From NCBI GenBank assembly GCA_028284625.1, contig JANQRH010000008.1, positions 227,441 through 291,440 of the forward strand: DNA of 64,000 nucleotides, written 5' to 3'. The position numbers and the translations under genes were made by a program. Shown here piece after piece: positions 1-51,170 of the stretch. The notes under the pieces were generated by a model. The model was not told the DNA's origin and searched no databases. It saw nothing but the letters and a program-made list of their open reading frames with translations. Numbering within the stretch: the stretch's first letter is position 1; each line of letters starts with the position of its first letter. This DNA comes from Afifellaceae bacterium (GTDB lineage: Bacteria; Pseudomonadota; Alphaproteobacteria; Rhizobiales; Afifellaceae).

Positions 1-915
1 GCCGCGAAGGCGATGTACTTCCCGCGACGCACTTGGCCGGCGCTCATGAAGGTGGTTGCCGGTCAGAGTGGGGTTGAGGCGGAGTTGGGTCGGCTAAAGG
101 CTTGGCTGCCGGGCGGCGCTGTCGACCAGAAGCGCGAAGACGCTCTTGAGATGCTCGCGGCGATGCGGGATGCGCCGGAACGAGCCGCATCGACGGCCAC
201 GGCTTTCCGGTTTGAACAAACGCGCTTCTGGGAGGATCTGGTGAGGCGCGAGGATCAGCGGCCAGTCTCGCCGGGCCTCGATGCCGATCAGGCTGGCGTG
301 CTTGAGGAGCTTCGGCTCCTAGGCCCTTCCGTCTTTCATTCAGTTGCGCGGAACGCTCTTCTGCGCGCACTGGCAGATTCGCCTTCAAGAGGGAGTGCTC
401 CGCTTCCAACCGAGTCAATAAGCGCCGCATCGGTCAGACTGAGAGAAACGCTGGGCCTCTTCACGCGTGAGCAACTCCAGACTTGGATGCTGGAGAACGA
501 TCTCGATCAACCGTCCTTCGACCGCTTGGTGGAGTCGGATGCGCGGCTCGCCATTTTGACGGAGAGCCTCGCCCAGACATCCAGCTCATATCTCTTGGAC
601 GAGATTCGCATATCCGGCCGCTACAAGAGTCTTGTTTGGCGCGCACAAGACAAAGCGGAGAAACTCGCCGGGCCGACTGGCGGCGCGTCCAGCTCAGAAC
701 CGATGCCTAACGGCGCGCAGTTGAGGCTCTGGTATTTCGAGCAGCGCCTGGAGCAATCCGTCCCGGACGATATCGCAGCTTTCACGCGCGCACTCGGATG
801 GGGCGGCGTGGCGGAATTTGACCGTGCGCTGGGCCGGGAATGGATGTATTCTCGGCTCACTGGGAGGAGCCCCGAACAGCGCGCTGAAGACGCCGACCGG
901 GAGCCGACTGCTTAA
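1..915 (+). CDS. hypothetical protein, 5'-truncated by window edge (possibly the C-terminal region of a larger protein; TfuA-like tail is a weak guess)
   Basis: Frame 1 is open from base 1 with no stop before the ATG at 13. It ends at TAA 913-915, 9 nt before the next gene. I see no catalytic motif. The N-terminal stretch YFPRRTWPAL...VDQKREDALEML only vaguely recalls the tails of TfuA-domain proteins, from memory. Confidence 0.5.
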   Translation, partial: AAKAMYFPRRTWPALMKVVAGQSGVEAELGRLKAWLPGGAVDQKREDALEMLAAMRDAPERAASTATAFRFEQTRFWEDLVRREDQRPVSPGLDADQAGVLEELRLLGPSVFHSVARNALLRALADSPSRGSAPLPTESISAASVRLRETLGLFTREQLQTWMLENDLDQPSFDRLVESDARLAILTESLAQTSSSYLLDEIRISGRYKSLVWRAQDKAEKLAGPTGGASSSEPMPNGAQLRLWYFEQRLEQSVPDDIAAFTRALGWGGVAEFDRALGREWMYSRLTGRSPEQRAEDADREPTA

Positions 916-924
916 GGGGCGCGA

Positions 925-2277
925 ATGGACTTTGGCGGCGGGGCGCGCACACGCTTTCGGTTGTTTCCGCAAGCGCCGTTTCTGCATCCGGAGCGGCCGC
1001 CCGAAATTGTCGGGATATCCAGTCCGCCCGGAACAATAGGCCCCGGACCGTCCGACCATCGGCTGTTTGTCATCGCACCGGTTGGCAAGCCCGATTCCTA
1101 CGGTATTGCCGAAGGCCCTTTCAGCACGCCCTATCTCAGCCTGCCGCCTTGGCGTGGTCCGATCCTGCCGCCCGTCAGGCCGGGTCTCGACGGACATTTC
1201 GATCACCTGCCGGTCGGTTCACCGGAGTTTCTGCAGGCGCATCTGTTCGGTGCGATCCGCTTCGTCCTGGAAGTGTGGGAGCGTTACCTCGGCGGCACGA
1301 TCCAATGGCACTTCGCGCGGCATTTCGATCGGCTGGAGGCCCTGATCTACCCGCCGCTCGACAATGCGCGCGTGGGCTACGGATACATGGAGGCGGGGTC
1401 GCACCAGAATGACGATGGGACGATTGCCGATTACGCGCTGAACTTCGACGTCATCGGGCATGAGATCGGCCATCTCATCATCTATTCGCTGATTGGCGTT
1501 CCAAGAGGGATCATCGAGCAGGAGGACTATTTCGGCTTTCAGGAATCCGCGGCCGACACGGCGGCGCTGATTGCGTCGCTGCATTTCGATTCCATGGTGG
1601 ATCAGCTTTTGGCCGACACGCGCGGCAACCTCTACGCAATGAACGAGCTAAACCGCTTCGCCGAGCTCACGACCAATGACCAGATACGGATGGCCAGCAA
1701 CTCGGTGACGATGGCTGAGTTCGCCTTCGGTTGGGACGATGAGCACGATCTTTCCGAACCGCTGACCGGCGCGATCTTCGATCTGCTGGTGGACGTCTTT
1801 CAGGAAATCTTGGTCGAGCGCGGCTTGATAACGCGCCAGATCGCGGAGATGTCCGACGCCATCCGCGAACGTCCCGATTACGAACCGATCATTCAATCGG
1901 CGTTCGACGCAGCGTTCGCCCGCCGGCCGCACCGTTTTCGAGACGCCCTGATTGAGACGCGGGACTATATGGGCGTGGCGATGGCGGAGACCTGGAAACG
2001 GCTGTCGGCGCAGTTCCTGAGCTACGATGATGTCGGCCGGATGCTGATTGCCGTCGATGGCGAGCTCACCGGCGGCCGCTATCGGCAAGAGATATTCGAG
2101 TGCTTCGATTGGCGCGGGATTGGCCGTATTCGCACGGGGCCACGGCTTGCACCGCCCGATGAATCCAGTCATGCCTACTCCACGCGCACGCTTGAACCAG
2201 AGACGGCGCCACGTCTTCCGGCCATGTCGTTCCAGGAGCAGGCTCTGCTTTCCAAGGCGCTGGCAGGCGTCAGATAA
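925..2277 (+). CDS. zinc metallopeptidase-like protein (HExxH ... E-x-x-x-D, gluzincin/thermolysin-like motif arrangement), family not recognised
   Basis: The 450-aa ORF carries HEIGH at 1459-1473 (res. 179-183). FQESAAD follows, with its Glu 24 residues after the second His, like the thermolysin-type NExxSD third-ligand motif. No signal peptide is evident. It is tightly packed between ORF1 (9-nt gap) and ORF3 (15-nt gap). Confidence 0.65.
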   Translation: MDFGGGARTRFRLFPQAPFLHPERPPEIVGISSPPGTIGPGPSDHRLFVIAPVGKPDSYGIAEGPFSTPYLSLPPWRGPILPPVRPGLDGHFDHLPVGSPEFLQAHLFGAIRFVLEVWERYLGGTIQWHFARHFDRLEALIYPPLDNARVGYGYMEAGSHQNDDGTIADYALNFDVIGHEIGHLIIYSLIGVPRGIIEQEDYFGFQESAADTAALIASLHFDSMVDQLLADTRGNLYAMNELNRFAELTTNDQIRMASNSVTMAEFAFGWDDEHDLSEPLTGAIFDLLVDVFQEILVERGLITRQIAEMSDAIRERPDYEPIIQSAFDAAFARRPHRFRDALIETRDYMGVAMAETWKRLSAQFLSYDDVGRMLIAVDGELTGGRYRQEIFECFDWRGIGRIRTGPRLAPPDESSHAYSTRTLEPETAPRLPAMSFQEQALLSKALAGVR

Positions 2278-2292
2278 ACAGGAGGAAATGCC

Positions 2293-2844
2293 ATGGCCAC
2301 ATCGCCAACGCAGTCGCAGCGGACGTCGCCGCCGGAATCATTGCTGACCGGATCAAGCGTCAAGCTTTACGGCCGTGTGGTCACAGGCGTGGCGTTGTCT
2401 GCGCCCGCCGGACCGGAGCTCGGCGACAACAAGTTCCTGCAGGCGCAGCTTAAGCGAAGCGACGCCAGGCTTGCGCGCATCTACGGCTTTGGTTTTGAGG
2501 GCACTTATTACGGCATGCCGCGCCCTGCGATCTTCCTGGTGCATGGCGACGGCCGCGAGGTCGACGTCGTGGATAAAGGCGACAAGCAGGCGGCCGATCT
2601 GAAGATGTGGGAATACGACAAGGCCGACTTCTCCATCCGGCTCGACACGGACACGGGGCCGTTCGAGCAGATCCTGCTTGCTGCGACGCTGACGGGCGGC
2701 GCGACCAGCGGCGCCAATCTTGGCAGCGGTGCCAATCTCGGAAGCGGCGCTAATCTCGGCGCCGGGGCCAATCTTGGCAGCGGAGCGAACCTGAGCAGTG
2801 GCGCCAACCTGACCAGCGGCGCAAACCTCACGGGCCGCCGCTAG
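2293..2844 (+). CDS. 183-aa protein with an unknown ~135-aa N-terminal domain and a C-terminal (S/A)GANL(G/S/T) x7 hexapeptide-repeat tail ending GRR
   Basis: A strong RBS (AGGAGGA, 2280-2286) lies 6 nt upstream of the ATG at 2293. The C-terminus reads SGANLG SGANLG SGANLG AGANLG SGANLS SGANLT SGANLT GRR*. Confidence 0.7.
   Translation: MATSPTQSQRTSPPESLLTGSSVKLYGRVVTGVALSAPAGPELGDNKFLQAQLKRSDARLARIYGFGFEGTYYGMPRPAIFLVHGDGREVDVVDKGDKQAADLKMWEYDKADFSIRLDTDTGPFEQILLAATLTGGATSGANLGSGANLGSGANLGAGANLGSGANLSSGANLTSGANLTGRR
2707..2832 (+). repeat. seven tandem in-frame 18-bp repeats encoding the SGANLx hexapeptide
   Basis: Read directly: agcggcgccaatcttggc / agcggtgccaatctcgga / agcggcgctaatctcggc / gccggggccaatcttggc / agcggagcgaacctgagc / agtggcgccaacctgacc / agcggcgcaaacctcacg. 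Confidence 0.9.
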
Positions 2845-3416
2845 GCTTCGCCGGTCCAGACCATTCTGAGACGCTCTTCGTCGCCGCCGTCATGGCGGAA
2901 GCCGAGCCGTTCGTAAAGCGCCTGGGCCCGGTTGCCTCGAATGACATTGAGGGCCAGCCGTCTCATGGAGGCGGCGGTGCATTCCTGCAGAGCACGAACG
3001 ATTTTCGTGCCGATTCCCCGGTTTCGGTGCCCGGTTATCAAGTGAATTTGATCGATGTGCACTTCTTCATCGGATTCAGACAATTGCAGCCAGCCAATAT
3101 CGCGCGGCGGGGCGGCGAGCATCTGTATCTGGTCCAACCTGAAGCTTTCGGTGAAGCGTGAGACGATCTTCGATTCGTCCCATCGGTCGAGCGCGATAAG
3201 CAGGGGCTTGGTGCTTTCCAGATAGAGTTCCAAGGCGAAATCGAAATCTCCGGCGCGAGAGGGCCGAAAGGACACCCCATCAATCGCGCACGTCTCGCCG
3301 ATCCCGCTCACAATGCTCTTTCTGGCCATCTTTGCTATGTTGATTGCTGCTCCGAATGGCAACCAAGCACCGCTGCTGGTGGCCAGCGAAATTGCTGAAT
3401 CAAGAACGAGCGGCAC
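2841..3416 (-). CDS. GNAT family N-acetyltransferase (start uncertain: GTG 3416 or ATG 3329)
   Basis: GNAT motif A-like HRNRGIGTKIVRAL and a C-terminal ALYERLGF. Starting at ATG 3329 gives a typical 162-aa GNAT. Its stop overlaps the stop of the 2293-2844 gene (CTAG, 2841-2844). Confidence 0.75.
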   Translation of the reverse strand: MPLVLDSAISLATSSGAWLPFGAAINIAKMARKSIVSGIGETCAIDGVSFRPSRAGDFDFALELYLESTKPLLIALDRWDESKIVSRFTESFRLDQIQMLAAPPRDIGWLQLSESDEEVHIDQIHLITGHRNRGIGTKIVRALQECTAASMRRLALNVIRGNRAQALYERLGFRHDGGDEERLRMVWTGEA

Positions 3417-3422
3417 CCTTTC

Positions 3423-5204
3423 ATGAACGAGCCCAGTGGGGAAGCAGAAGGTTTAGATCCGGGTCGTGCCGCGCGACGCCGACTGGCGGCGGTGATGTTT
3501 GCCGACATGGTGGGTTATAGCCGCCAACTGGAACAAGACGAAAGGCGCAACGCTCTCCAGGCGGAACGGTCGGTGGAGCTCTTTCGATCGCTTGTCGGCG
3601 ATTACGGCGGGGCGGTAGCAAATGTCGCCGGCGACGGCATCCTCGCCATCTTTGCGAGCGCGGACGAGGCGGTCCGCTTTGCGATTCAGGTCCAGTCGGA
3701 TTTCCAGGGACAGGCCGTATGGGGTGACGGCCAGCCGATCGAGTTTCGGATCGGCATCAATCTCGGCGAGATCACCGAATCGCAGGGGGATGTGCGCGGC
3801 CACTCGGTGAACGTGGCGGCGAGGCTGCAGCAAATCGCCGAGCCTGGGGCCATCGTCGTCTCCTCCGCCGTTCGCGATGCGGTCGGCGACCAGGCCGAGC
3901 TGTCGCTCCGTTCTCTCGGCCGGCCCACGCTCAAGAACATTCAAACATCTATCGAGGTCTTTTCGGTCGGGCGCGGCGAGCAAGAGCCGGAACTGGTCGT
4001 TCGCGATACGCGCCCAACGCCGACCGTCACGGCGCGACAGCCATCGATCGCCGTCCTGGCGCTGCAGAACCTCTCAGGCGATCCCTCTAACGACCATCTG
4101 TGCGAGGGCGTCGTTGAGGATGTGATTGCGAACCTCACACGGTTTCGCAGTCTTATGGTCATCGCCAGGCATTCGGCGTTTCTGTTCAGCCTCAAGTCCA
4201 GCACGGTGGGCGAGATCGGGCGCCGCTTGGGCGTGCGTTATCTGTTGGCCGGCAGTCTTCGCCGCTCAGGCAAGCGCGTGCGCATCGGCGTCGAGCTCAT
4301 CGACGTTGAAAGCGAAAGCGCGCTTTGGTCCGACGATTACCGCATTGACGTAGAGGAGCTGTTTGACCTGCAGGACGAGATCGCGGGGTCGGTGGCTGCG
4401 CGGCTGGCTGTGCAGATCGACTTTGCAGAGCGCCGGCAGGAATCGCATCATCCGCGCGACCTCTTGGCATATGGCCTTGTGCTTCGCGGCCAGCATCTCG
4501 TCGCCCTCTACACGAAGGAAGGGAACGCCCACGCGCGTCGGCTTTTCGATGAAGCAGCGTCGATCGCGCCCGATTACGGCCGCGTCTACAGTTCGTTGTC
4601 GCGCACGCATAACCTGGACTGGCGATATTCGTGGTCGGCGTCACCCGATGAGTCACTCGACGCCGCCGTAGCGCTTGCGCAGCGCGCCGTGGACCTCGAT
4701 CGGCTGGACGCCCGCGGGTTCAGCGAACTCGGCTTCGCACATCTCTATAAGAAGCAGCACGAAAAGGCGGTGGCGGAATATCGGCGTGCGCTGGCGCTGA
4801 ACCCCAACGACGCCGACATCATCGCCGAATATGCCGATGCGCTCGTTTATGCGGGGCGGCCGGAGGAATCGGTGGAGCTGCTTGAGCGCGCGATGCGGCT
4901 CAATCCGTACTATCCCGACTGGTATTTGTGGTACCTCGCCGACGCTTACATCACGTTGCGACGGCATTCCGATGTGATTGCCACCGTCCAGAAGATGCAG
5001 AAGCCCGACGAAGGTCGCCGCATGCTCGCCGCCAGCTATGCGCATCTCGGCAAGCTCGACGAGGCGCGGGCGGAGGCAGAAGCGGTGCTTCGCCTTCACC
5101 CGGATTTCACGATCAGCCGCTGGCGACAGCGGCCGCCTTATCAAGATGAGGAGGCGCTGGAGCACTTCATCGAAGGCATGCGCATGGCCGGGCTGCCTGA
5201 CTGA
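3423..5204 (+). CDS. class III adenylate/guanylate cyclase domain protein with C-terminal TPR repeats
   Basis: N-terminal cyclase motifs: FADMVGYS, GDGILAIF, RIGINLGE, GHSVNVAARL. The middle region is TolB-N-like (IAVLALQNLSGDP...). C-terminal TPR-like repeats: AVAEYRRALALNPNDA, ELLERAMRLNPYYP, AEAEAVLRLHPDF. Confidence 0.85.
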   Translation: MNEPSGEAEGLDPGRAARRRLAAVMFADMVGYSRQLEQDERRNALQAERSVELFRSLVGDYGGAVANVAGDGILAIFASADEAVRFAIQVQSDFQGQAVWGDGQPIEFRIGINLGEITESQGDVRGHSVNVAARLQQIAEPGAIVVSSAVRDAVGDQAELSLRSLGRPTLKNIQTSIEVFSVGRGEQEPELVVRDTRPTPTVTARQPSIAVLALQNLSGDPSNDHLCEGVVEDVIANLTRFRSLMVIARHSAFLFSLKSSTVGEIGRRLGVRYLLAGSLRRSGKRVRIGVELIDVESESALWSDDYRIDVEELFDLQDEIAGSVAARLAVQIDFAERRQESHHPRDLLAYGLVLRGQHLVALYTKEGNAHARRLFDEAASIAPDYGRVYSSLSRTHNLDWRYSWSASPDESLDAAVALAQRAVDLDRLDARGFSELGFAHLYKKQHEKAVAEYRRALALNPNDADIIAEYADALVYAGRPEESVELLERAMRLNPYYPDWYLWYLADAYITLRRHSDVIATVQKMQKPDEGRRMLAASYAHLGKLDEARAEAEAVLRLHPDFTISRWRQRPPYQDEEALEHFIEGMRMAGLPD

Positions 5205-5267: not shown

Positions 5268-5804
5268 GTGCTTAAATCGTCTCTGATTGCAGCAACGATT
5301 ATCACCTGCAGTGGCCCAATGACGGCCTTAGCCGAAGCCCCAGTTCTTCAGTCGGGCACCCCGGTAATCTACCTGGCCGACAATCTTGATGAGAAAGATA
5401 AGCTTGGGTGGTGCATTGACACCGAAGGTCGAGGATTTGCCGAAACGTTGCAATCGCACTCCTGCAAGCCGGCGTCACCCGGCGGCACGGACACACAATT
5501 TTCCTACGACGACGCGAACGGCCAGATCCGGTCTGTGCCTTTCAATGACAAATGCATGACGCTCAGCGATCCGGACAGTGAGGAGTGGCCCTTTGGCCTC
5601 CTCGATTGCGTGAGCGACGAGCCCTCGCAGACATTCGTTTATGACGTCGCGTCGAAGGAAATCCGGATCGGCGGCGATCCGTCCAAATGCGTTGTCGTCG
5701 CGCCGACGAGCATTGCTGCCGGTCCCTTCATGTCACGCGACCTGATCTACGCCGATTGCGATTCGGTAGAGGAGAAGTTCAAGCAGTGGGTCGTGAAGAA
5801 CTAA
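5268..5804 (+). CDS. secreted ricin-type beta-trefoil lectin-like protein
   Basis: GTG start with RBS AAGGAGGA. Signal peptide MLKSSLIAATIITCSGPMTALAEA. Three internal pseudo-repeats show a C..C..Q(F/W)..D..G(Q/E)IR pattern (WCIDTEG/DTQFSYD/GQIRS; KCMTLSD/SQTFVYD/KEIRIG; KCVVVAP/KQWVV). Confidence 0.55.
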   Translation: MLKSSLIAATIITCSGPMTALAEAPVLQSGTPVIYLADNLDEKDKLGWCIDTEGRGFAETLQSHSCKPASPGGTDTQFSYDDANGQIRSVPFNDKCMTLSDPDSEEWPFGLLDCVSDEPSQTFVYDVASKEIRIGGDPSKCVVVAPTSIAAGPFMSRDLIYADCDSVEEKFKQWVVKN

Positions 5805-5895: not shown

Positions 5896-6690
5896 TCACA
5901 CAGTGCCGCCGAGCGAGCCCTCCAGCTCCGCCAGTTCCTGACCGCCCGCCATCAGATCCTGCAGCTCGTCCGGCGTGATCTGGCCGCGCTGGGCGGTGCC
6001 TAGCGTCTTGCCGCGGTTCAAGACCGTGAATCGATCACCCACCGCCAGCGCGTGCCGGACGTTATGGGTGATGAACACAACGGCGATATCCTGCTTGCGG
6101 ACCTTATCGACAGTGGCCAGCACATTGGAGGTTTGGCGAACGCCAAGCGCTGAGGTCGGCTCGTCGAGGATCAGCACCTTGGCGCCGAAATGTACAGCAC
6201 GGGCGATGGCAACCGTCTGCCGCTCGCCGCCCGACAGCGTGCCGACCGCCTGGTCCGGGCCACGCAGGTTGATGCCCATCTTGCGCATCTCCTGCATGGT
6301 GATGCGGTCGGCATGCTCCTGATCGTAAAAGGGGATGCCGGCGATGCGCTTTATCGGCTCGTTGCCCATGAAGAAGTTGCGGGCAACGCTCATCAGCGGG
6401 ATCATCGCGAGGTCCTGATAGACGGTCGCGATGCCGGCGGCGATGGCCATGCGCGGGTCGGAGAAGCGCATCGGCTTGCCTTCAAAAAGGATCTCGCCGC
6501 TGGTTGGCTCGTGAACGCCCGACATCGTCTTGATGAAGGTCGATTTGCCGGCGCCATTATCGCCCAGAAGGCAATGGCATTCGCCCGGGTAGACGTCGAG
6601 CGATACGCCGGCGAGTGCGATGACGGAGCCGAAATGCTTCTCGATCTCCCGCATCTGGATGATCGGCTCGTGTTGGGTTCGCGTGTTCAT
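5896..6690 (-). CDS. sugar ABC transporter ATP-binding protein (single NBD)
   Basis: Walker A GDNGAGKST, signature LSGGERQ and Walker B LILDEPT. It is the last gene of the SBP-permease-ATPase operon. Confidence 0.9.
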   Translation of the reverse strand: MNTRTQHEPIIQMREIEKHFGSVIALAGVSLDVYPGECHCLLGDNGAGKSTFIKTMSGVHEPTSGEILFEGKPMRFSDPRMAIAAGIATVYQDLAMIPLMSVARNFFMGNEPIKRIAGIPFYDQEHADRITMQEMRKMGINLRGPDQAVGTLSGGERQTVAIARAVHFGAKVLILDEPTSALGVRQTSNVLATVDKVRKQDIAVVFITHNVRHALAVGDRFTVLNRGKTLGTAQRGQITPDELQDLMAGGQELAELEGSLGGTV

Positions 6691-6691
6691 G

Positions 6692-7816
6692 TCAGCGCTC
6701 CCCGGTGATCATGCGGCGGATATAGGTGTTCAGCACCACCGCGAAGAGCAGGATGACGCCGAGGAACACCCGGAACAGCGAGCTTTCCACGCCGGCGAAG
6801 AACAGGCCCTGCTGCACGACGCCGAAGATCAGCGCGCCAAGGGCGGCGCCGATGACGGAGCCGTAACCGCCGGTCAATAATGCACCGCCGATCACGACGG
6901 CGATGATCGCCTCGAATTCCTTGAGGAGCCCGCGGTCGGCGCCGGCGGAGCCGAATTCCATCACCTGGCAGGTGGCGAAGACGCAGGCGCAGAATGCGGT
7001 GAACATGAACATGAGGACCTTCACCCGGTTCACCGGCACGCCGACATAGCGCGCAGCCTGCGCGTCGCCACCGGCGGCGAATATCCAGTTGCCGAATTGC
7101 GTGCGCGTCAGCAGCAGATGGCCGACCAGCACCAGCACCAGCGCCCAGACGATCAGCATGGGAATGCCGTCGACCACGGGATCGCCGGCGCGCGAACCGC
7201 GCTCGAACGTACCGATGATGCCGGCGTCGCCCATCCATTGGAACAGGCCCTGCAGGATCTTGCCGCCGAATATGGGCGCCAGCCAGTCGCCTTCGGCGAT
7301 GTCGCGGATGCCGCCGATGATCGTCTTACGCTCCAGCGCCTGCGGCAGGTAGATGGTGAAGCCGCGCAGAATGAACAGGGAAGCCAGCGTCACGATGAAG
7401 CTGGGCAGCCCGGTGCGGATGACAATGAAGCCGTTGACTGCGCCAATGGCGATGCAGAGCGCAAAGGTGACGATGATCGCTATCCAGACCGGCCATCCCA
7501 GGGTGACGGAAAAGATCGCGATCATCATGCCGGAGAAGCCGATCATGGAGCCGACGGACAGGTCGAACTCGCCTGCGATCATCAAGAGGCAGGCGCCGAC
7601 GGCAATGATCATGAATTGTGCGGAAACGGTCGACCAGTTCAACACGCCTTGGCTGTTGAACATGCCGGAATCGAACGCAAACACGAAGAAACAGGCAAAA
7701 ACGACGATGGTTCCGCAGATGCCGCCGAGCTCCGGGCGGATCAGTGCCCGGCGGAGTGGCGACATCTCCTTGACGCGTTCGTCGGTTGCGGTTTGTTGCT
7801 GCGTCATCTCCGACAT
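6692..7816 (-). CDS. sugar ABC transporter permease (CUT2/RbsC-like); ORF track extends to a TTG at 7855
   Basis: Polytopic hydrophobic protein typical of ribose/fructose-type permeases. The ATG at 7816 has GGAGGG 7 nt upstream. The TTG at 7855 abuts a stem-loop. Alternative ATGs are at 7834 and 7807. Confidence 0.85.
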   Translation of the reverse strand: MSEMTQQQTATDERVKEMSPLRRALIRPELGGICGTIVVFACFFVFAFDSGMFNSQGVLNWSTVSAQFMIIAVGACLLMIAGEFDLSVGSMIGFSGMMIAIFSVTLGWPVWIAIIVTFALCIAIGAVNGFIVIRTGLPSFIVTLASLFILRGFTIYLPQALERKTIIGGIRDIAEGDWLAPIFGGKILQGLFQWMGDAGIIGTFERGSRAGDPVVDGIPMLIVWALVLVLVGHLLLTRTQFGNWIFAAGGDAQAARYVGVPVNRVKVLMFMFTAFCACVFATCQVMEFGSAGADRGLLKEFEAIIAVVIGGALLTGGYGSVIGAALGALIFGVVQQGLFFAGVESSLFRVFLGVILLFAVVLNTYIRRMITGER

Positions 7817-7855
7817 TAGCCGGCCCTCCGTCATGTCGCAGGAATGAGGATACAA

Positions 7856-7887
7856 GAAGGGCGGCCACCTTCTCGGGGCCGCCCTTC
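7856..7887 (-). terminator. intercistronic GC-rich stem-loop between the binding-protein and permease genes (attenuator / mRNA-stabilising hairpin)
   Basis: A perfect 11-bp stem, gaagggcggcc (7856-7866) paired with ggccgcccttc (7877-7887), with a 10-nt loop. Confidence 0.6.
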
Positions 7888-7895
7888 AGGATGTG

Positions 7896-8843
7896 TCAGC
7901 GGTATTCGCCGGCGAACATCTCAACCTTTTCAAGCCCGTCGGCAGTCACGAAGCCGGGGCCGGAGTTGATGTTGTTGCCAGGCAGCACGCCGTAGCGGTG
8001 ATAATTGGCCATGATCACCACAGGCAGATAGGCCTGCAGGAAGGGCTGCTGGTCGATGCCCCATTTGATCGTGCCCGCCTTGATGGCTTTGACGATCTCC
8101 TCGCCAAGGTCGAACGTGCCGAAGTAAATATCACCGGCCATGCCGTTCTCTTCCAGGGCCTGGATCGTCGGGTCGGCGGAAACCGGGCCGAGTGTCAGAA
8201 CGGCGTCGGTGTCCGGGTTGGTCGACAGGTAGGCCATCACCTTGTTCTTGACTTCGCCCGGGTCGGTGCCGCTGTCGAGCATGGATTCGCCAAGCTCAAC
8301 GCCAAGTCCATCGGCGAAGCCCTGGCAGCGCTCGACCAGCGAGGGCTGCTGGATGGTGTGGTTCACGCACAGGAACGAGGTGATGCCGTCGCCCTTGGCG
8401 CGCAGACCGGCGGCGTAGCCGGCGTCATATTCCGGCTGTCCGACATACATCAGAGCGCCCACTTCGCGGGCCTGATCGGCGGTGCCGGTGTTCATGATGA
8501 TGACGTCGACGCCGGAAGCGACCGCATCCATGATCGGACCGCTCAAGACGTCGTAATCGGCCAGCGTCGTGATGATGCCGTTGGGGCCGCTGGCGGCTGC
8601 CTGCTCGATGATGCGGGCCATGTCGGCGATGTCGCCGGTGGGCGGGTTGCGGTATTCGACCGAAACGCCCACCTGGTCGCCCGCCAGGGCGATGCCGTTC
8701 TTGATCGTGTTCCACCAGCTGTCGCTGTCAGGTGCGTGGCTTACCAGCACGTAGCTGAGGTCGTCCTGGGCCATTGCCGGCGCTGCAACCGGAGCGACAG
8801 CGAGCGCGGCGCCCACCGCCACAGATGCAATCAACGATCTCAT
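7896..8843 (-). CDS. periplasmic sugar-binding protein of ABC transporter (CUT2 type)
   Basis: Signal peptide MRSLIASVAVGAALAVAPVAAPAMA. Periplasmic-binding-protein type I features are present, and it is the first gene of the operon. Confidence 0.9.
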   Translation of the reverse strand: MRSLIASVAVGAALAVAPVAAPAMAQDDLSYVLVSHAPDSDSWWNTIKNGIALAGDQVGVSVEYRNPPTGDIADMARIIEQAAASGPNGIITTLADYDVLSGPIMDAVASGVDVIIMNTGTADQAREVGALMYVGQPEYDAGYAAGLRAKGDGITSFLCVNHTIQQPSLVERCQGFADGLGVELGESMLDSGTDPGEVKNKVMAYLSTNPDTDAVLTLGPVSADPTIQALEENGMAGDIYFGTFDLGEEIVKAIKAGTIKWGIDQQPFLQAYLPVVIMANYHRYGVLPGNNINSGPGFVTADGLEKVEMFAGEYR

Positions 8844-19249: not shown

Positions 19250-20758
19250 GTGGAGGAATTGTGGCTGGGTGTCGATATCGGCACCACGATGATCAAGGCC
19301 GCCGCCTACCGTCCTGACGGCACGCAGGCCGCATATGCGGAGGCGTCGGTCCCGGTTCAGCGGACCGGCGAGGGTTGGGCGGAGCAGGATATGCATGCCG
19401 TGTGGAGCGGCGTGTGCGCCGTCCTGCGCGCCGTGGCTAAAGACGTCGACACGGCCGTGATCAGCAGTATCGGACTCGCCGCTCAAGGCGACGGGCTGTG
19501 GATGCTCGACGATGCCGGGCAGCCCAACGGCCCGGCCATGCTGTGGAACGACACACGCGCCGGCCGCGACGTTGAGGCGCTGATCGCCGACGGTCGCGCA
19601 GCCGCTGTCGGCCGCGCCTGCAACACATCGAACTGGCCGGGCACGAGCGGTAGCCTCTATGGCTGGCTGAAGCGTAACGACCCGGCGCGTGCGGCCAAGA
19701 CGGCGCGTGTTCTCTACTGCGCCGATTGGGTCGGCTATTGCATGACCGGCGTTGTCGCGACGGATCTTGCCGACGCGTCAATCCCGTTTTTCGACCTTCA
19801 GACCAAGAGTTGGTCGGACGCCGCCCTGGCGGCTCTCGACTGCGAAGACTTGAAGGCGAAGCTGCCCAATCCGCAGCCCGCCGATACGATCCTGGGGCGT
19901 GTGACCAAAGACGCGGCAGAGGCGACCGGTCTGCCCGAAGGGCTTCCCGTCTCAACCGGCACGCTCGATCTCGGCGCCATGATCGTCGGCATGGGCATGG
20001 ATCAATCCGGTCAGACGATGATGATCCTGGGCACCACCGCGGTGGTCAACATTCTCACCGACCGGATTGAGCCGGCGGATGCGCCTGTCGGGGCGACGAC
20101 GTTTCATTCCACCGCCGACCTCAAGATCCGCATCCTTGCGCCGTCGACCGGTGCGGCGGCGTTCGATTGGTTCACAGCACTTCACCCGCAGTCGCTCGGC
20201 GGCGACAGTCCCGGCGAAGTTGCCGAGAAGCTGAACGCGCTGGCGCGCGACGTGCCGCCCGGATCGCGCGGCGTTCTGTTCCTGCCTTATCTCAACGGCG
20301 AGCGGGCGCCCTTTGTCGCGCCGTTGGCGCGCGGCTCGTTCCATGGCCTGACCAGCGACACATCGAAAGCGGAGATGGGCCGTGCGGTCATGGAGGGCGC
20401 CGCATTCAGCCTGCGCCACTGCTTTGAAGCTGAGGGCGCGACGCCGAGCGAGCCTGTGCAGCTCACCGGCGGCGGGGCGCGGAACGCGCTTTGGTGCGAC
20501 ATCGTCGCGGACGTGCTCGGCGTGCCGGTGATCGTGAGCCCGCTCAGCGATCACGGCTTATGGGGTGCGGCGTGCATTGGTGCGGCTGCCGCCGGCAAGG
20601 GCAATGCGTGCCGGTTGGCAGCGCGGGACGAGCATGGCTGGACGCATGAGCCGGATGCGGAGCGACACGCCGTCTACAATGGCGCCTTCAAGCGCTACGC
20701 GGCGGTGTCGGAGGCAAGCCGGCCGATCTGGGCGGCCATGCGTGATGAGGACGAGTGA
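19250..20758 (+). CDS. FGGY family carbohydrate kinase (xylulokinase/ribulokinase-like)
   Basis: N-terminal LGVDIGTT motif, then GLAAQGDG, LPYLNGERAP and GGGARN motifs. Confidence 0.85.
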   Translation: MEELWLGVDIGTTMIKAAAYRPDGTQAAYAEASVPVQRTGEGWAEQDMHAVWSGVCAVLRAVAKDVDTAVISSIGLAAQGDGLWMLDDAGQPNGPAMLWNDTRAGRDVEALIADGRAAAVGRACNTSNWPGTSGSLYGWLKRNDPARAAKTARVLYCADWVGYCMTGVVATDLADASIPFFDLQTKSWSDAALAALDCEDLKAKLPNPQPADTILGRVTKDAAEATGLPEGLPVSTGTLDLGAMIVGMGMDQSGQTMMILGTTAVVNILTDRIEPADAPVGATTFHSTADLKIRILAPSTGAAAFDWFTALHPQSLGGDSPGEVAEKLNALARDVPPGSRGVLFLPYLNGERAPFVAPLARGSFHGLTSDTSKAEMGRAVMEGAAFSLRHCFEAEGATPSEPVQLTGGGARNALWCDIVADVLGVPVIVSPLSDHGLWGAACIGAAAAGKGNACRLAARDEHGWTHEPDAERHAVYNGAFKRYAAVSEASRPIWAAMRDEDE

Positions 20759-49595: not shown

Positions 49596-51170
49596 TTAGC
49601 CGAAGGCTGTGTCCGCAACAGCGAAGATTTCGTGTTCGTCGCGGACGTTGCGCAATTTGCGCACGCCAAGGGAGCTGAGGTTAGCCGGCGCGCGGCCGGC
49701 GATCTCACCTGAAAGCAGCAGAGACTGGCCGAGCTCCTTGCATAACGCGCTAAGCCTGGCGGCGACGTTTGCGGCTTGACCTGTGACCGTGAAATCAAGC
49801 CGTCGCGAAGCGCCGACATTGCCGTACATGAGGTCACCGAAATGCACGCCGATGGCGCATTGGACCGAAATCCCGTCGGCGCGCGGCGGAACGGCCGCGA
49901 TTTCGGCAATGATGGCTTCGGCTGCGGCGCGCGCCTTGCTGCAGGCGGAGCAAATGGCATCCTCGCTGGCCTCGGCGTCTTCCAGCGGAAAGATCGCCAG
50001 CACTGCGTCGCCGATGAATTTCAGCACCTCGCCACCACCGGCAAGTACCGGCTCCACTGTGCGCTCAAAGAAGTCGTTGAGGAGCTCCAGATAGTTTTGG
50101 CGCGATAGGGCTTCAGCCAGGGACGTGGAGTCGCGAAGGTCGCAATAGAGCACCGCAGCCCGGATCACCTGACCTGCTCCGCGTTGCGTCCGCCCACCGA
50201 GGACCTGTCGGCCGGTGCGTTCACCGAGATAAGTGTCGAATAGCACGGAGGCGTCGCGCCTCAGTGTCATCACCTCATAGAAGCGACCCAGTACGGGAAA
50301 CGATTCAAACGCCTGACCGAGTTGGGCGGTGGTGAAGCCGTCCGGATGGTCGGTGGCCATGGTCATGGTTTGAAAGCGGCCATCGGAGAAGGGCAGCGGA
50401 ATGGCGACGTAGTCGGTTCCACCGCTGGCGCGAAGCTGTTCAAGGATCGGGAAGCGAAACTCCGGTTCCTCGACGTCCAAACGCTGGCGAACGCCGCCGA
50501 GGCCTTCGCTGACAAAGCGAACCGGACTGTTGCGGTAGGCGGGGCTTTGCAGGATGCCGTGCGGCGTGTCGCTTTCCTCCACCACGCCGGTGTCGCGCGT
50601 CCACGAGAAGCGTTGGCCAGCTATCTCCGGGTGGAGCGTCCAAAGATTGATTGTGAAGCGCCAAAGCGGAACGCCGGCGGCGAGGAGTTGTTTAGCAAAC
50701 TCTGCTGTCAGCTCGGCGGGCGTCTTGCATTGCCACGCCTTCAGCATCAGCCAATCGACCAGCGGCCGCCCGCCCACGAACTCAACCGGGGCCGGCGGCA
50801 GTGGCGGCTCTGCATGGACTTCAGTGAAGCGGTTATCGAAGGTGACATGACCGCCTACGCCTGCCGCTTCCGACAACGGCTTTTCGTAGCTCCAAGCTGC
50901 GTTTTCAATCGTGCCGCCCGGGAGCGTGAGGTGCCAGTGGCTCGCAGTGCCCTTGAAGGGACAGAACGTGCGGTAGTCAGAGGCAACGAGGAGGCCGTCC
51001 GCCACGTCAGATTTGGGGACGTAATAAATCGGAGGAAAATAGGTTTCGCTCAGCAGCATTGCGGCCGAACTGTCGGCGATCGTTTGGCCACCAGCGGTTA
51101 CGCGCACGCGCCGCTCTGCCGGTTTGATGGCGATGCGGTAGTTCTGGTCGTGCTCGCTCGCTCGCTGCAC
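49596..51170 (-). CDS. DUF427 domain - regulatory domain - class III adenylate/guanylate cyclase fusion protein
   Basis: The N-terminus carries DUF427-like motifs (YYVPKSDV, FCPFKGTASHW, AAWSYE). The C-terminal cyclase carries VLYCDLRDST, GDAVLAIFP, IGVHFGDLMYGNVG and FTVTGQAANVAARL. Confidence 0.75.
   Translation of the reverse strand: MQRASEHDQNYRIAIKPAERRVRVTAGGQTIADSSAAMLLSETYFPPIYYVPKSDVADGLLVASDYRTFCPFKGTASHWHLTLPGGTIENAAWSYEKPLSEAAGVGGHVTFDNRFTEVHAEPPLPPAPVEFVGGRPLVDWLMLKAWQCKTPAELTAEFAKQLLAAGVPLWRFTINLWTLHPEIAGQRFSWTRDTGVVEESDTPHGILQSPAYRNSPVRFVSEGLGGVRQRLDVEEPEFRFPILEQLRASGGTDYVAIPLPFSDGRFQTMTMATDHPDGFTTAQLGQAFESFPVLGRFYEVMTLRRDASVLFDTYLGERTGRQVLGGRTQRGAGQVIRAAVLYCDLRDSTSLAEALSRQNYLELLNDFFERTVEPVLAGGGEVLKFIGDAVLAIFPLEDAEASEDAICSACSKARAAAEAIIAEIAAVPPRADGISVQCAIGVHFGDLMYGNVGASRRLDFTVTGQAANVAARLSALCKELGQSLLLSGEIAGRAPANLSSLGVRKLRNVRDEHEIFAVADTAFG

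Follow-up and report, generated by a model that had tools for sequence, protein, structure and literature searches.

We analyzed a 64,000-nucleotide (nt) stretch of DNA from an Afifellaceae bacterium (contig JANQRH010000008.1, positions 227,441 to 291,440; hereafter the window), which begins with a compact run of genes encoding the end of a TfuA-like protein (open reading frame (ORF) 1), a zinc metallopeptidase (ORF2) and a 183-amino-acid (aa) protein with a short tandem-repeat tail (ORF3). A sequence-only reading of this DNA had described three same-strand genes with gaps of 9 nt (ORF1–ORF2) and 15 nt (ORF2–ORF3), and these coordinates were confirmed (Table 1). As it had also recognized, the first gene is cut by the window edge: its frame (frame 1) stays open from the first base up to a stop codon at 913–915, and the start of ORF1 thus lies outside the window. 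The ribosome-binding site of ORF3 (AGGAGG) is stronger than that of ORF2 (AAGGGG) and, as stated in the earlier reading, the strongest among the genes checked. ORF3 converges with a gene for a GNAT N-acetyltransferase, and the stop codons of both genes overlap in CTAG (2841–2844), leaving no space for a terminator between them. In the contig annotation, the GNAT start is placed at a later ATG (window 2844–3329, 162 aa).

Table 1. Features of the gene cluster, its flanks and variant loci discussed in the text.
Feature	Sequence	Coordinates	Strand	Remarks
FGGY kinase	L001	238-1713		Upstream of YcaO
YcaO	L001	1683-2954		PF02624 E 4e-75; TIGR00702 197 bits, above cut-off
Full tfuA gene	L001	2951-4336		PF07812 E 2e-47; NF033432 209 bits; start overlaps ycaO stop
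tfuA-like gene, 3' part (ORF1; residues 158-461 of a 461-aa protein)	Window	1..915	+	End of TfuA domain ~nt 4-171, then C-terminal extension of ~245 aa
Zinc metallopeptidase gene (ORF2), 450 aa	Window	925..2277	+	HEIGH nt 1459-1473; E207 codon nt 1543-1545
Ribosome-binding site AGGAGG of the candidate precursor gene	Window	2280..2285	+	Direct reading; 7 nt ahead of the ORF3 ATG
Precursor-like protein (ORF3), 183 aa	Window	2293..2844	+	N-terminal domain and repeat tail
Conserved N-terminal domain (putative leader), predicted to be folded, residues 1-138	Window	2293..2706	+	Family conservation and AlphaFold2 model
Tandem-repeat tail (putative core)	Window	2707..2844	+	Seven units nt 2707-2832, then GRR and stop codon
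GNAT N-acetyltransferase	Window	2841..3416	-	Convergent with the candidate precursor gene; PF00583 E 9e-9
Class III nucleotide cyclase, middle domain and TPR repeats, 593 aa	Window	3423..5204	+	Guanylate_cyc E 2.6e-7; several TPR families
Ricin-type beta-trefoil lectin, 178 aa	Window	5268-5804	+	PF00652 E 9e-9; hydrophobic signal-like N-terminus
Sugar ABC transporter (ATPase, permease, binding protein)	Window	5896-8843	-	Downstream of the cluster
Variant of Rhizobium etli CFN42 plasmid p42c	L086	7025-11309		RHE_RS23830 to RHE_RS23815; repeat protein tail SGGLSRSGGALSRSGGVMSRSGGFIPRRSGDGD
Remote-subfamily locus of Rhizobium phaseoli pRphaN831b	L087	1844-9934		Also L090 and L091; cyclase-STAND, YcaO, short TfuA, peptidase, leader-domain protein of ~160-230 aa

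A look-up with ORF2 and ORF3 identified an exactly matching public contig (L001 in our numbering of loci), which shows no mismatch over its overlap of 5577 base pairs (bp) with the window and in which base 1 of the window corresponds to base 3422. The gene order upstream in this contig is FGGY kinase, YcaO and TfuA, the 3' end of tfuA being ORF1 of the window. The sequence-only reading had guessed that ORF1 resembles the tail of TfuA proteins, and this proved correct: ORF1 is the C-terminal part of the L001 TfuA, and its residues 2–57 match positions 155–210 of the 211 positions of the NCBIfam model NF033432 (E 1.2e-5). The YcaO and TfuA genes that it had advised looking for are both located directly upstream in the identical contig, where the upstream genes are not housekeeping genes. 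Among NCBIfam models, the best matches of both proteins are the pair that thioamidates a glycine of McrA, namely TIGR03266 for YcaO (208 bits) and NF033432 for TfuA (209 bits), although neither score reaches its equivalog cut-off (365 and 235). The model of the azoline-forming SagD cyclodehydratase scored lower on YcaO (132 bits) than the thioamidation model.

The C-terminal extension of TfuA is present in most orthologues. It matches TIGR04500, 'putative peptide maturation system protein', in 24/40 orthologues (best E 7.5e-9) and shows a weak SurA_N_3 match in three; a sequence relative with solved structure was not found at a meaningful level. Nine loci, including those of Hoeflea, Nitratireductor and Anderseniella, carry a short TfuA (~230–270 aa) without the TIGR04500-like extension (L038, L040, L046, L047, L052, L065, L025, L043 and L039). 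Judged from these loci, the extension appears to be dispensable or supplied elsewhere.

The metallopeptidase encoded by ORF2 contains HEIGH at residues 179–183 and GFQESAAD at about residues 203–210, the latter holding E207 and D211. The residues H179, E180, H183, E207 and D211 are invariant across 46 homologues, and E207, the third zinc ligand, sits in an E-x-x-x-D motif downstream of HExxH. At the sequence level, neither a Pfam family (with E-values up to 1 admitted), including Peptidase_M36 and M4, nor an NCBIfam family matched the protein; sequence search gave no meaningful relative with solved structure, and at least 826 homologues are nearly all unnamed. The AlphaFold2 model of the peptidase (mean predicted local distance difference test (pLDDT) 88, predicted template modeling score (pTM) 0.90) was compared with the PDB using Foldseek and matched M36 fungalysins and M4 enzymes at probability 1.0, with E-values down to 3e-7 (M36 structure 7z6t). 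The matched M4 structures are vibriolysin, thermolysin, aureolysin, LasB and ProA, with target template modeling scores of 0.52–0.63 and 9–14% identity to the solved enzymes. Based on this model, the HExxH protein is predicted to have the two-lobed thermolysin/fungalysin (M4/M36) fold, and together with the invariant ligands this agrees with the thermolysin-like zinc motif pair noted in the earlier reading. A homologue from Bacillus mycoides (39% identity, E 5e-101) passes the Pfam M36 model with 29.1 bits at a cut-off of 23.3, and the sequence link of the window peptidase to M36 is transitive only, through this homologue.

Whereas M4/M36 enzymes are secreted zymogens with a signal peptide and a propeptide, the window peptidase appears to have neither and is encoded in a peptide-modification operon. 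No propeptide domain was found in the Pfam scan and no membrane segment was seen; the N-terminus is not hydrophobic (maximal Kyte–Doolittle value over 12 residues of 0.92 in the first ~40 residues). The peptidase is therefore apparently cytoplasmic. For comparison, a 2023 review of RiPP leader proteases (RiPP, peptide made by the ribosome and modified after translation) lists the families M1, M16, M50, M61, M79 and M103, but no thermolysin type. A peptidase homologue with 43% identity was also observed in a different putative biosynthetic context on a plasmid of Nostoc sp. UHCC 0302 (L088, 5400–14369); its neighbors encode a vanadium-chloroperoxidase-like protein, two ferritin-like proteins, a radical SAM enzyme and an FAD-binding protein, and no repeat-protein gene was seen at this locus.

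The 183-aa protein of ORF3 belongs to a family of 648 clusters at 50% identity (E up to 1e-3; 501 clusters at E up to 1e-10), whose members are between 149 and 420 aa long. Neither Pfam nor NCBIfam has a model for this family, and the NHLP and Nif11 leader models of these databases gave no match to the 183-aa protein. The N-terminal ~135 residues are well conserved across the family, with the motifs ETLLxPSxIKLYGR, LARIYGFSFEGxYYxLPKPAIFLVHGxG and WEYDKGDFSIRLDxExGPFEQILL and with invariant residues including E15, G27, H84, W106, Y108, D112 and R116. In the AlphaFold2 model, the 10-residue block means of pLDDT are ~76–94 for residues ~20–110, except for a loop at 91–100 (mean 59), and lower (58–70) for residues 110–138. 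No PDB fold relative of this domain was found by Foldseek (best E 0.14).

The C-terminal tail of the window protein was read as described before, as seven hexapeptides at residues 139–180 (SGANLG three times, AGANLG, SGANLS and SGANLT twice) followed by GRR. Tandem Repeats Finder reported a period of 18 with 6.5 copies and 76% matches for the tail DNA. This architecture recurs in hundreds of homologues and, given this recurrence, is not a chance feature. Between lineages the tail is hypervariable, with units of 4–8 residues in 1–10 copies. Among 194 tails, units of 4, 5, 6, 7 and 8 residues were found in 2, 52, 39, 50 and 6 tails, respectively; the repeat-bearing tails have ~2 to 10 copies, and ~21 of the 194 show a single unit or no clear repeat. 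A set of 248 tails yielded at least 92 distinct consensus units, for example SGANL, SGAGV, SGARV, SGAKV, GMNAR, GANAR, GQQAR, SGADLR(S), SRADLS, SGGKAY, GYNV, SGAHARV and SGQGLDxR. A comparison of adjacent units at 57 loci gave 853 synonymous differences and 622 identical codons, but only 77 amino-acid differences; in the window gene, the corresponding numbers are 20, 12 and 4. Since the copies are near-identical as peptides but not as DNA, each copy is kept by selection on the peptide sequence, and not by recent slippage. One tail deviates from this picture: at L043 (7983–8648) it turns Arg/Gly-rich after two units and looks out of frame (VSGAGVSRRGGQRRRRQ...), which probably reflects either a frameshift introduced by assembly within the repeats or a pseudogene.

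The repeats raise the question of whether ORF3 encodes an ordinary pentapeptide- or hexapeptide-repeat beta-helix protein, which merely adjoins the YcaO-TfuA pair. Five-residue members with units such as SGANL and SGANV fit the pentapeptide consensus, and some carry a Pfam Pentapeptide match (PF00805) and are accordingly named 'pentapeptide repeat-containing protein'; the unit ANLSG also fits the A(D/N)LXX consensus. The window protein, with its unit of six residues, shows no PF00805 match, and its weak Hexapep match (PF00132, E 0.041) reaches 14.1 bits, below the 27-bit cut-off. Moreover, about half of the repeat-bearing tails have a period of 4, 6, 7 or 8, which is impossible for a strict five-residue helix, and the arrays are very short, with 2–10 units, while some members have just one unit or lack repeats. 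In the window protein, the tail has pLDDT values below 50 and is predicted to be disordered, not a beta-helix. A protein of this type would also leave the strict synteny with three other genes unexplained. We therefore rejected the beta-helix and consider it barely credible. The low pLDDT of the tail and the lack of a PDB relative of the N-terminal domain also answer the doubt, raised in the sequence-only reading, that the repeat could be an ordinary fold element of a known structural family.

The earlier reading had further proposed that the Ser of each repeat could be modified. This does not hold in general, as many units of the family lack Ser (GMNAR, GANAR, GQQAR, GYNV), and Ser is an unlikely general site of azoline formation. 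Azolines are also disfavored by YcaO and TfuA scoring closer to thioamide-forming than to SagD-type YcaOs. Gly is found in most repeat units without being universal, being replaced by Arg in units of the SRADLS type.

Using a profile of the 183-aa family, relatives were found in 223 species-representative genomes, from which 80 loci were fetched (81 including L001); synteny was counted in those 68 loci whose upstream sequence spans 4.6 kb or more. YcaO and TfuA are each present in 65/68 loci and the HExxH peptidase in 67/68, where it is encoded directly upstream of the repeat-protein gene. The order YcaO, TfuA, peptidase and repeat protein is collinear in 64/68 loci. A protein with a cyclase domain accompanies 64/68 loci and lies within the fetched flanks of 74/81, and a GNAT gene was found in 24/68 loci with full flank and in the same position in 30/81. 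The genes of the sequence-only reading thus co-occur across genomes, and the repeat number varies from 1 to ~10, as it had asked. Most hosts are Alphaproteobacteria (Hyphomicrobiales, Rhodobacterales, Rhodospirillales/Kiloniellales), and a few are labeled as Gammaproteobacteria, Burkholderiales, Rokubacteria or Chloroflexota. When the ORFs of these loci were clustered all against all, this revealed no other widely conserved neighbor gene and, in particular, no transporter and no immunity gene.

Taken together, we favor, with moderate confidence, the reading that the 183-aa protein is the precursor of a RiPP, combining a structured leader with a multi-copy core, which would be thioamidated by YcaO-TfuA and cut by a dedicated cytoplasmic protease. 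Six lines of evidence argue for it. A conserved putative recognition domain is joined to a hypervariable C-terminal core; the gene is tightly linked in one operon to a thioamide-type YcaO-TfuA pair; a dedicated peptidase is encoded along with it; the putative substrate gene has the strongest ribosome-binding site; each repeat copy is under selection; and unit length and number vary freely. The earlier suggestion of a precursor with its maturation protease is in this way supported by comparative evidence from synteny and leader/core anatomy. What was observed here is the gene content, the synteny, the fold assignments, the repeat architecture and the selection on the repeats, from which we infer that the protein would be the substrate and a thioamide the modification.

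In the proposed pathway, the structured N-terminal domain would serve for recognition ('leader'), and the disordered tail would provide several copies of one short core unit. YcaO would activate backbone amides of the tail with ATP, and TfuA would supply sulfide for the formation of thioamides; the C-terminal extension of TfuA, being TIGR04500-like and weakly SurA-N-like, probably holds the leader domain. The peptidase of thermolysin fold could then cut the tail in the cytoplasm either once, off the leader, or at every unit, and cuts at every unit would result in several identical thioamidated peptides of 4–8 residues per precursor. As a speculation, a near-universal hydrophobic or Ala residue per unit would suit the P1' preference of thermolysin-type enzymes. 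GNAT, where present, might N-acetylate the released peptide as in the thiovarsolins, and the cyclase-TPR protein might couple the system to cyclic-nucleotide signaling, either as a regulator or as a sensor.

YcaO and TfuA could also act on a protein that keeps its tail. Here, the repeats would be thioamidated and function in place, for example by binding soft metals or resisting proteases, and the peptidase would have another role. McrA and ribosomal protein uL16 are precedents for thioamidated proteins. Both enzymes are most similar to the pair modifying the protein McrA, YcaO enzymes with protein substrates exist (PMC13063428), and the N-terminal domain is large, predicted to be folded and strongly conserved. 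However, the repeat-protein gene directly follows that of a dedicated peptidase at nearly all loci, the tail is predicted to be disordered, and unit length, copy number and sequence vary freely, which a single function in place would not predict. We therefore give this alternative little credence.

Several observations weigh against the precursor reading. As no single residue recurs in every repeat unit, it is impossible to name the modification site, and the five-residue-unit members carry the Pfam Pentapeptide annotation mentioned above. Neither a ThiS-like sulfur carrier nor an exporter or immunity gene is conserved in the loci, and all proteins of the cluster look cytoplasmic, with no membrane-like segment in any of them; as no exporter is conserved, an extracellular role of the product is unsupported by the loci. 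Furthermore, variants without YcaO-TfuA are common. At L073, L077, L082, L083 and on the Rhizobium etli CFN42 plasmid p42c, the cyclase, the peptidase and the repeat protein occur without an adjacent YcaO-TfuA pair. Considering these variants, the trio of cyclase, peptidase and repeat protein appears to form the invariant core, to which thioamidation would not be essential.

In the variants without YcaO, the same-strand run begins with the cyclase gene, and an extra ORF of 112–123 aa is present. L077, for example, stems from Rhizobium sp. 18055 and consists of genes for cyclase-TPR, peptidase, repeat protein and an ORF of ~112 aa, the one copy scanned, which showed no Pfam or PADLOC match. Of the 129 plasmid records on which the peptidase was found, 116 belong to Rhizobium, and most of these 116 matches resemble the p42c gene (~48–50% identity). 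A remote subfamily in Sinorhizobium meliloti and Rhizobium has a leader domain homologous to that of the family (hhalign probability 96%, E 4.6e-9), and its tail is one non-repeated stretch of ~20 aa. It follows YcaO and the peptidase, with TfuA listed in 2/3 loci, the gene table of the third being incomplete there. At the R. phaseoli locus of this subfamily, a convergent gene for a GGDEF diguanylate cyclase is located just downstream.

The nucleotide cyclase occurs in two forms. One is a cyclase-TPR protein of ~590 aa encoded downstream, as in the window, which in some loci is replaced by a cyclase-STAND(AAA_16)-TPR protein of ~1100 aa encoded directly upstream of YcaO. The window cyclase matches TIGR04510, 'peptide modification system cyclase', with E 2e-8 and 33 bits at a cut-off of 400, and the long cyclase of L015 matches TIGR03903, 'TOMM system kinase/cyclase fusion', over positions 266–1265 with 450 bits at a cut-off of 706 and without the kinase part. 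From these matches, both forms appear to be related in architecture to the two models, but not members of them. In 49 orthologues of the short form, conservation is 90% or higher at the motif residues AD, GDG..F, FR.G and N.A.R; we take them to be the Asp pair that binds the metal and the transition-state Asn and Arg of class III cyclases. Within the protein, conservation is highest in the TPR region, with a mean pairwise identity of 0.54 compared to 0.43 for the cyclase domain. In two bins, TPR identity was 0.73 for pairs with the same repeat unit versus 0.70 for other pairs and 0.81 versus 0.76, based on small numbers and confounded by phylogeny; a clear co-variation of the TPR region with the type of unit was not seen. 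As the TPR region is conserved while the peptides are hypervariable, the leader domain would be a better candidate ligand than the variable peptides, if the TPR region binds anything of the system. Elsewhere in the window, a second cyclase-domain homologue was found at 49617–50159 on the minus strand (28% identity to the cyclase domain of the cluster protein).

These features also fit an intracellular proteolytic switch, in which the peptidase would cleave the repeat protein, and the leader or its cleavage state would be read by the TPR region to control cyclic-nucleotide synthesis; thioamidation would then only tune the cleavage or stability of the tail. The persistence of the trio without adjacent YcaO-TfuA and the leading position of the cyclase in those runs point in this direction, as do the recurrence of a cyclase-domain relative in two architectures at most loci, its conserved putative catalytic residues, the cytoplasmic appearance of all proteins without a conserved exporter, and the conservation of the TPR region, which would suit a constant ligand, for instance the leader, more than it would a hypervariable peptide. 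A switch, however, leaves the hypervariability between lineages and the identity of units within one protein unexplained, and cyclase or kinase-STAND fusions accompany other YcaO peptide clusters as presumed regulators (the TIGR03903 match above; PMC2887384). On balance, we regard it as possible, but rather unlikely.

Read as a precursor system, the cluster finds its closest precedent in the thiovarsolins, N-acetylated thioamidated tripeptides whose repeating core is processed by YcaO and TfuA (Streptomyces varsoviensis varA/varY/varT; PMC6511847). At the level of the cluster description, the likeness consists in a YcaO-TfuA pair with a core of short repeats, the relatives of thiovarsolin ranging from non-repeating to five repeats (PMC6511847). 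The thiovarsolin system differs in being actinobacterial and in having a short precursor with an ordinary leader; its cluster contains no protease or acetyltransferase genes, and host enzymes are invoked instead (PMC6511847). In contrast, the system described here combines a leader domain of ~135 aa that is predicted to be folded, an always encoded peptidase of predicted M36/M4 fold, a GNAT in about a third of the loci and a cyclase-TPR gene. The pair modifying the McrA glycine represents the best-scoring families, and most repeat units contain Gly, but the window scores stay below the cut-offs and the host is alphaproteobacterium-like and without McrA. Further differences from this pair are the extra domain of TfuA and the likely substrate, a dedicated repeat-tailed protein encoded in the operon.

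The cluster also resembles NHLP precursors and NHLP-Burk TOMM clusters (TIGR03903; PMC2887384, PMC12537861), which feature large, structured, protein-like leaders fused to a variable core, enzymes of the YcaO family and a large regulator of the cyclase-STAND-TPR type beside the cluster. Unlike in those systems, the leader described here matches no NHLP or Nif11 model and has a predicted fold without PDB relative, the partner of YcaO is TfuA and not C/B proteins, a double-Gly transporter is missing, and the cyclases score below the cut-offs. A global survey reported more than 1000 proteobacterial YcaO-TfuA clusters and is silent on repeats, cyclases and TPR proteins. Although thousands of YcaO-TfuA clusters have been detected in Proteobacteria by genome mining, every characterized thioamidated RiPP is from Actinobacteria (PMC8120280). 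No description of the precursor family, the peptidase or the R. etli genes was found in the literature searched, which largely excluded subscription journals. Thioamidated RiPP clusters with a repeating core are already known; what this one adds is the fold of its leader, a cytoplasmic protease of M36/M4-like type dedicated to the cluster, the extension of TfuA and the association with a cyclase.

The FGGY kinase is present in 2/81 loci and was rejected as part of the system. The sequence-only reading had placed the genes in an islet with a GNAT, a cyclase-TPR protein and a secreted lectin, of which the first two recur with the system and the lectin does not: it adjoins the cluster only in the identical contig and in 0/80 other loci, was rejected as a component as well and probably represents unrelated cargo. 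As the FGGY kinase and the sugar ABC transporter flank the cluster but neither is conserved with it elsewhere, this arrangement suggests that a module of ~7.5 kb was inserted into a carbohydrate-use locus. The GC content falls to 0.56 over the GNAT gene. An FGGY paralogue is located further downstream in the window (19259–20551, plus strand). A known anti-phage defense system was considered as well and rejected, as PADLOC gave only generic matches of the cyclase to PycC.

That nucleotide cyclases recur beside the cluster hints that modified peptides may be linked to cyclic-nucleotide signaling. One possible form is a self-contained circuit from peptide to second messenger, in which many identical short thioamidated peptides released from one precursor, or the freed leader, would be read by the TPR region of the adjacent cyclase to produce cAMP, cGMP or another cyclic nucleotide. 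While we consider this circuit doubtful, it would, if true, represent a RiPP with a cyclase as its dedicated receptor and a Gram-negative counterpart of TPR-based oligopeptide sensing, and the diversity of units between lineages would serve as a specificity code.

Altogether, the orphan YcaO-TfuA clusters of one proteobacterial group gain a likely substrate family, which spans the sequence clusters and species-representative genomes counted above. At 150–420 aa, such a precursor is unlikely to be flagged by short-peptide finders. The family adds a structured leader fold without solved relative and a peptidase type that is absent from the 2023 review of RiPP proteases. It is present in culturable Leisingera, Hoeflea, Pelagibius, Nitratireductor and Mesorhizobium as well as on many Rhizobium plasmids. 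Provided that the precursor reading is true, the variable tails would constitute a natural library of at least 92 short unit sequences accepted by one enzyme set.

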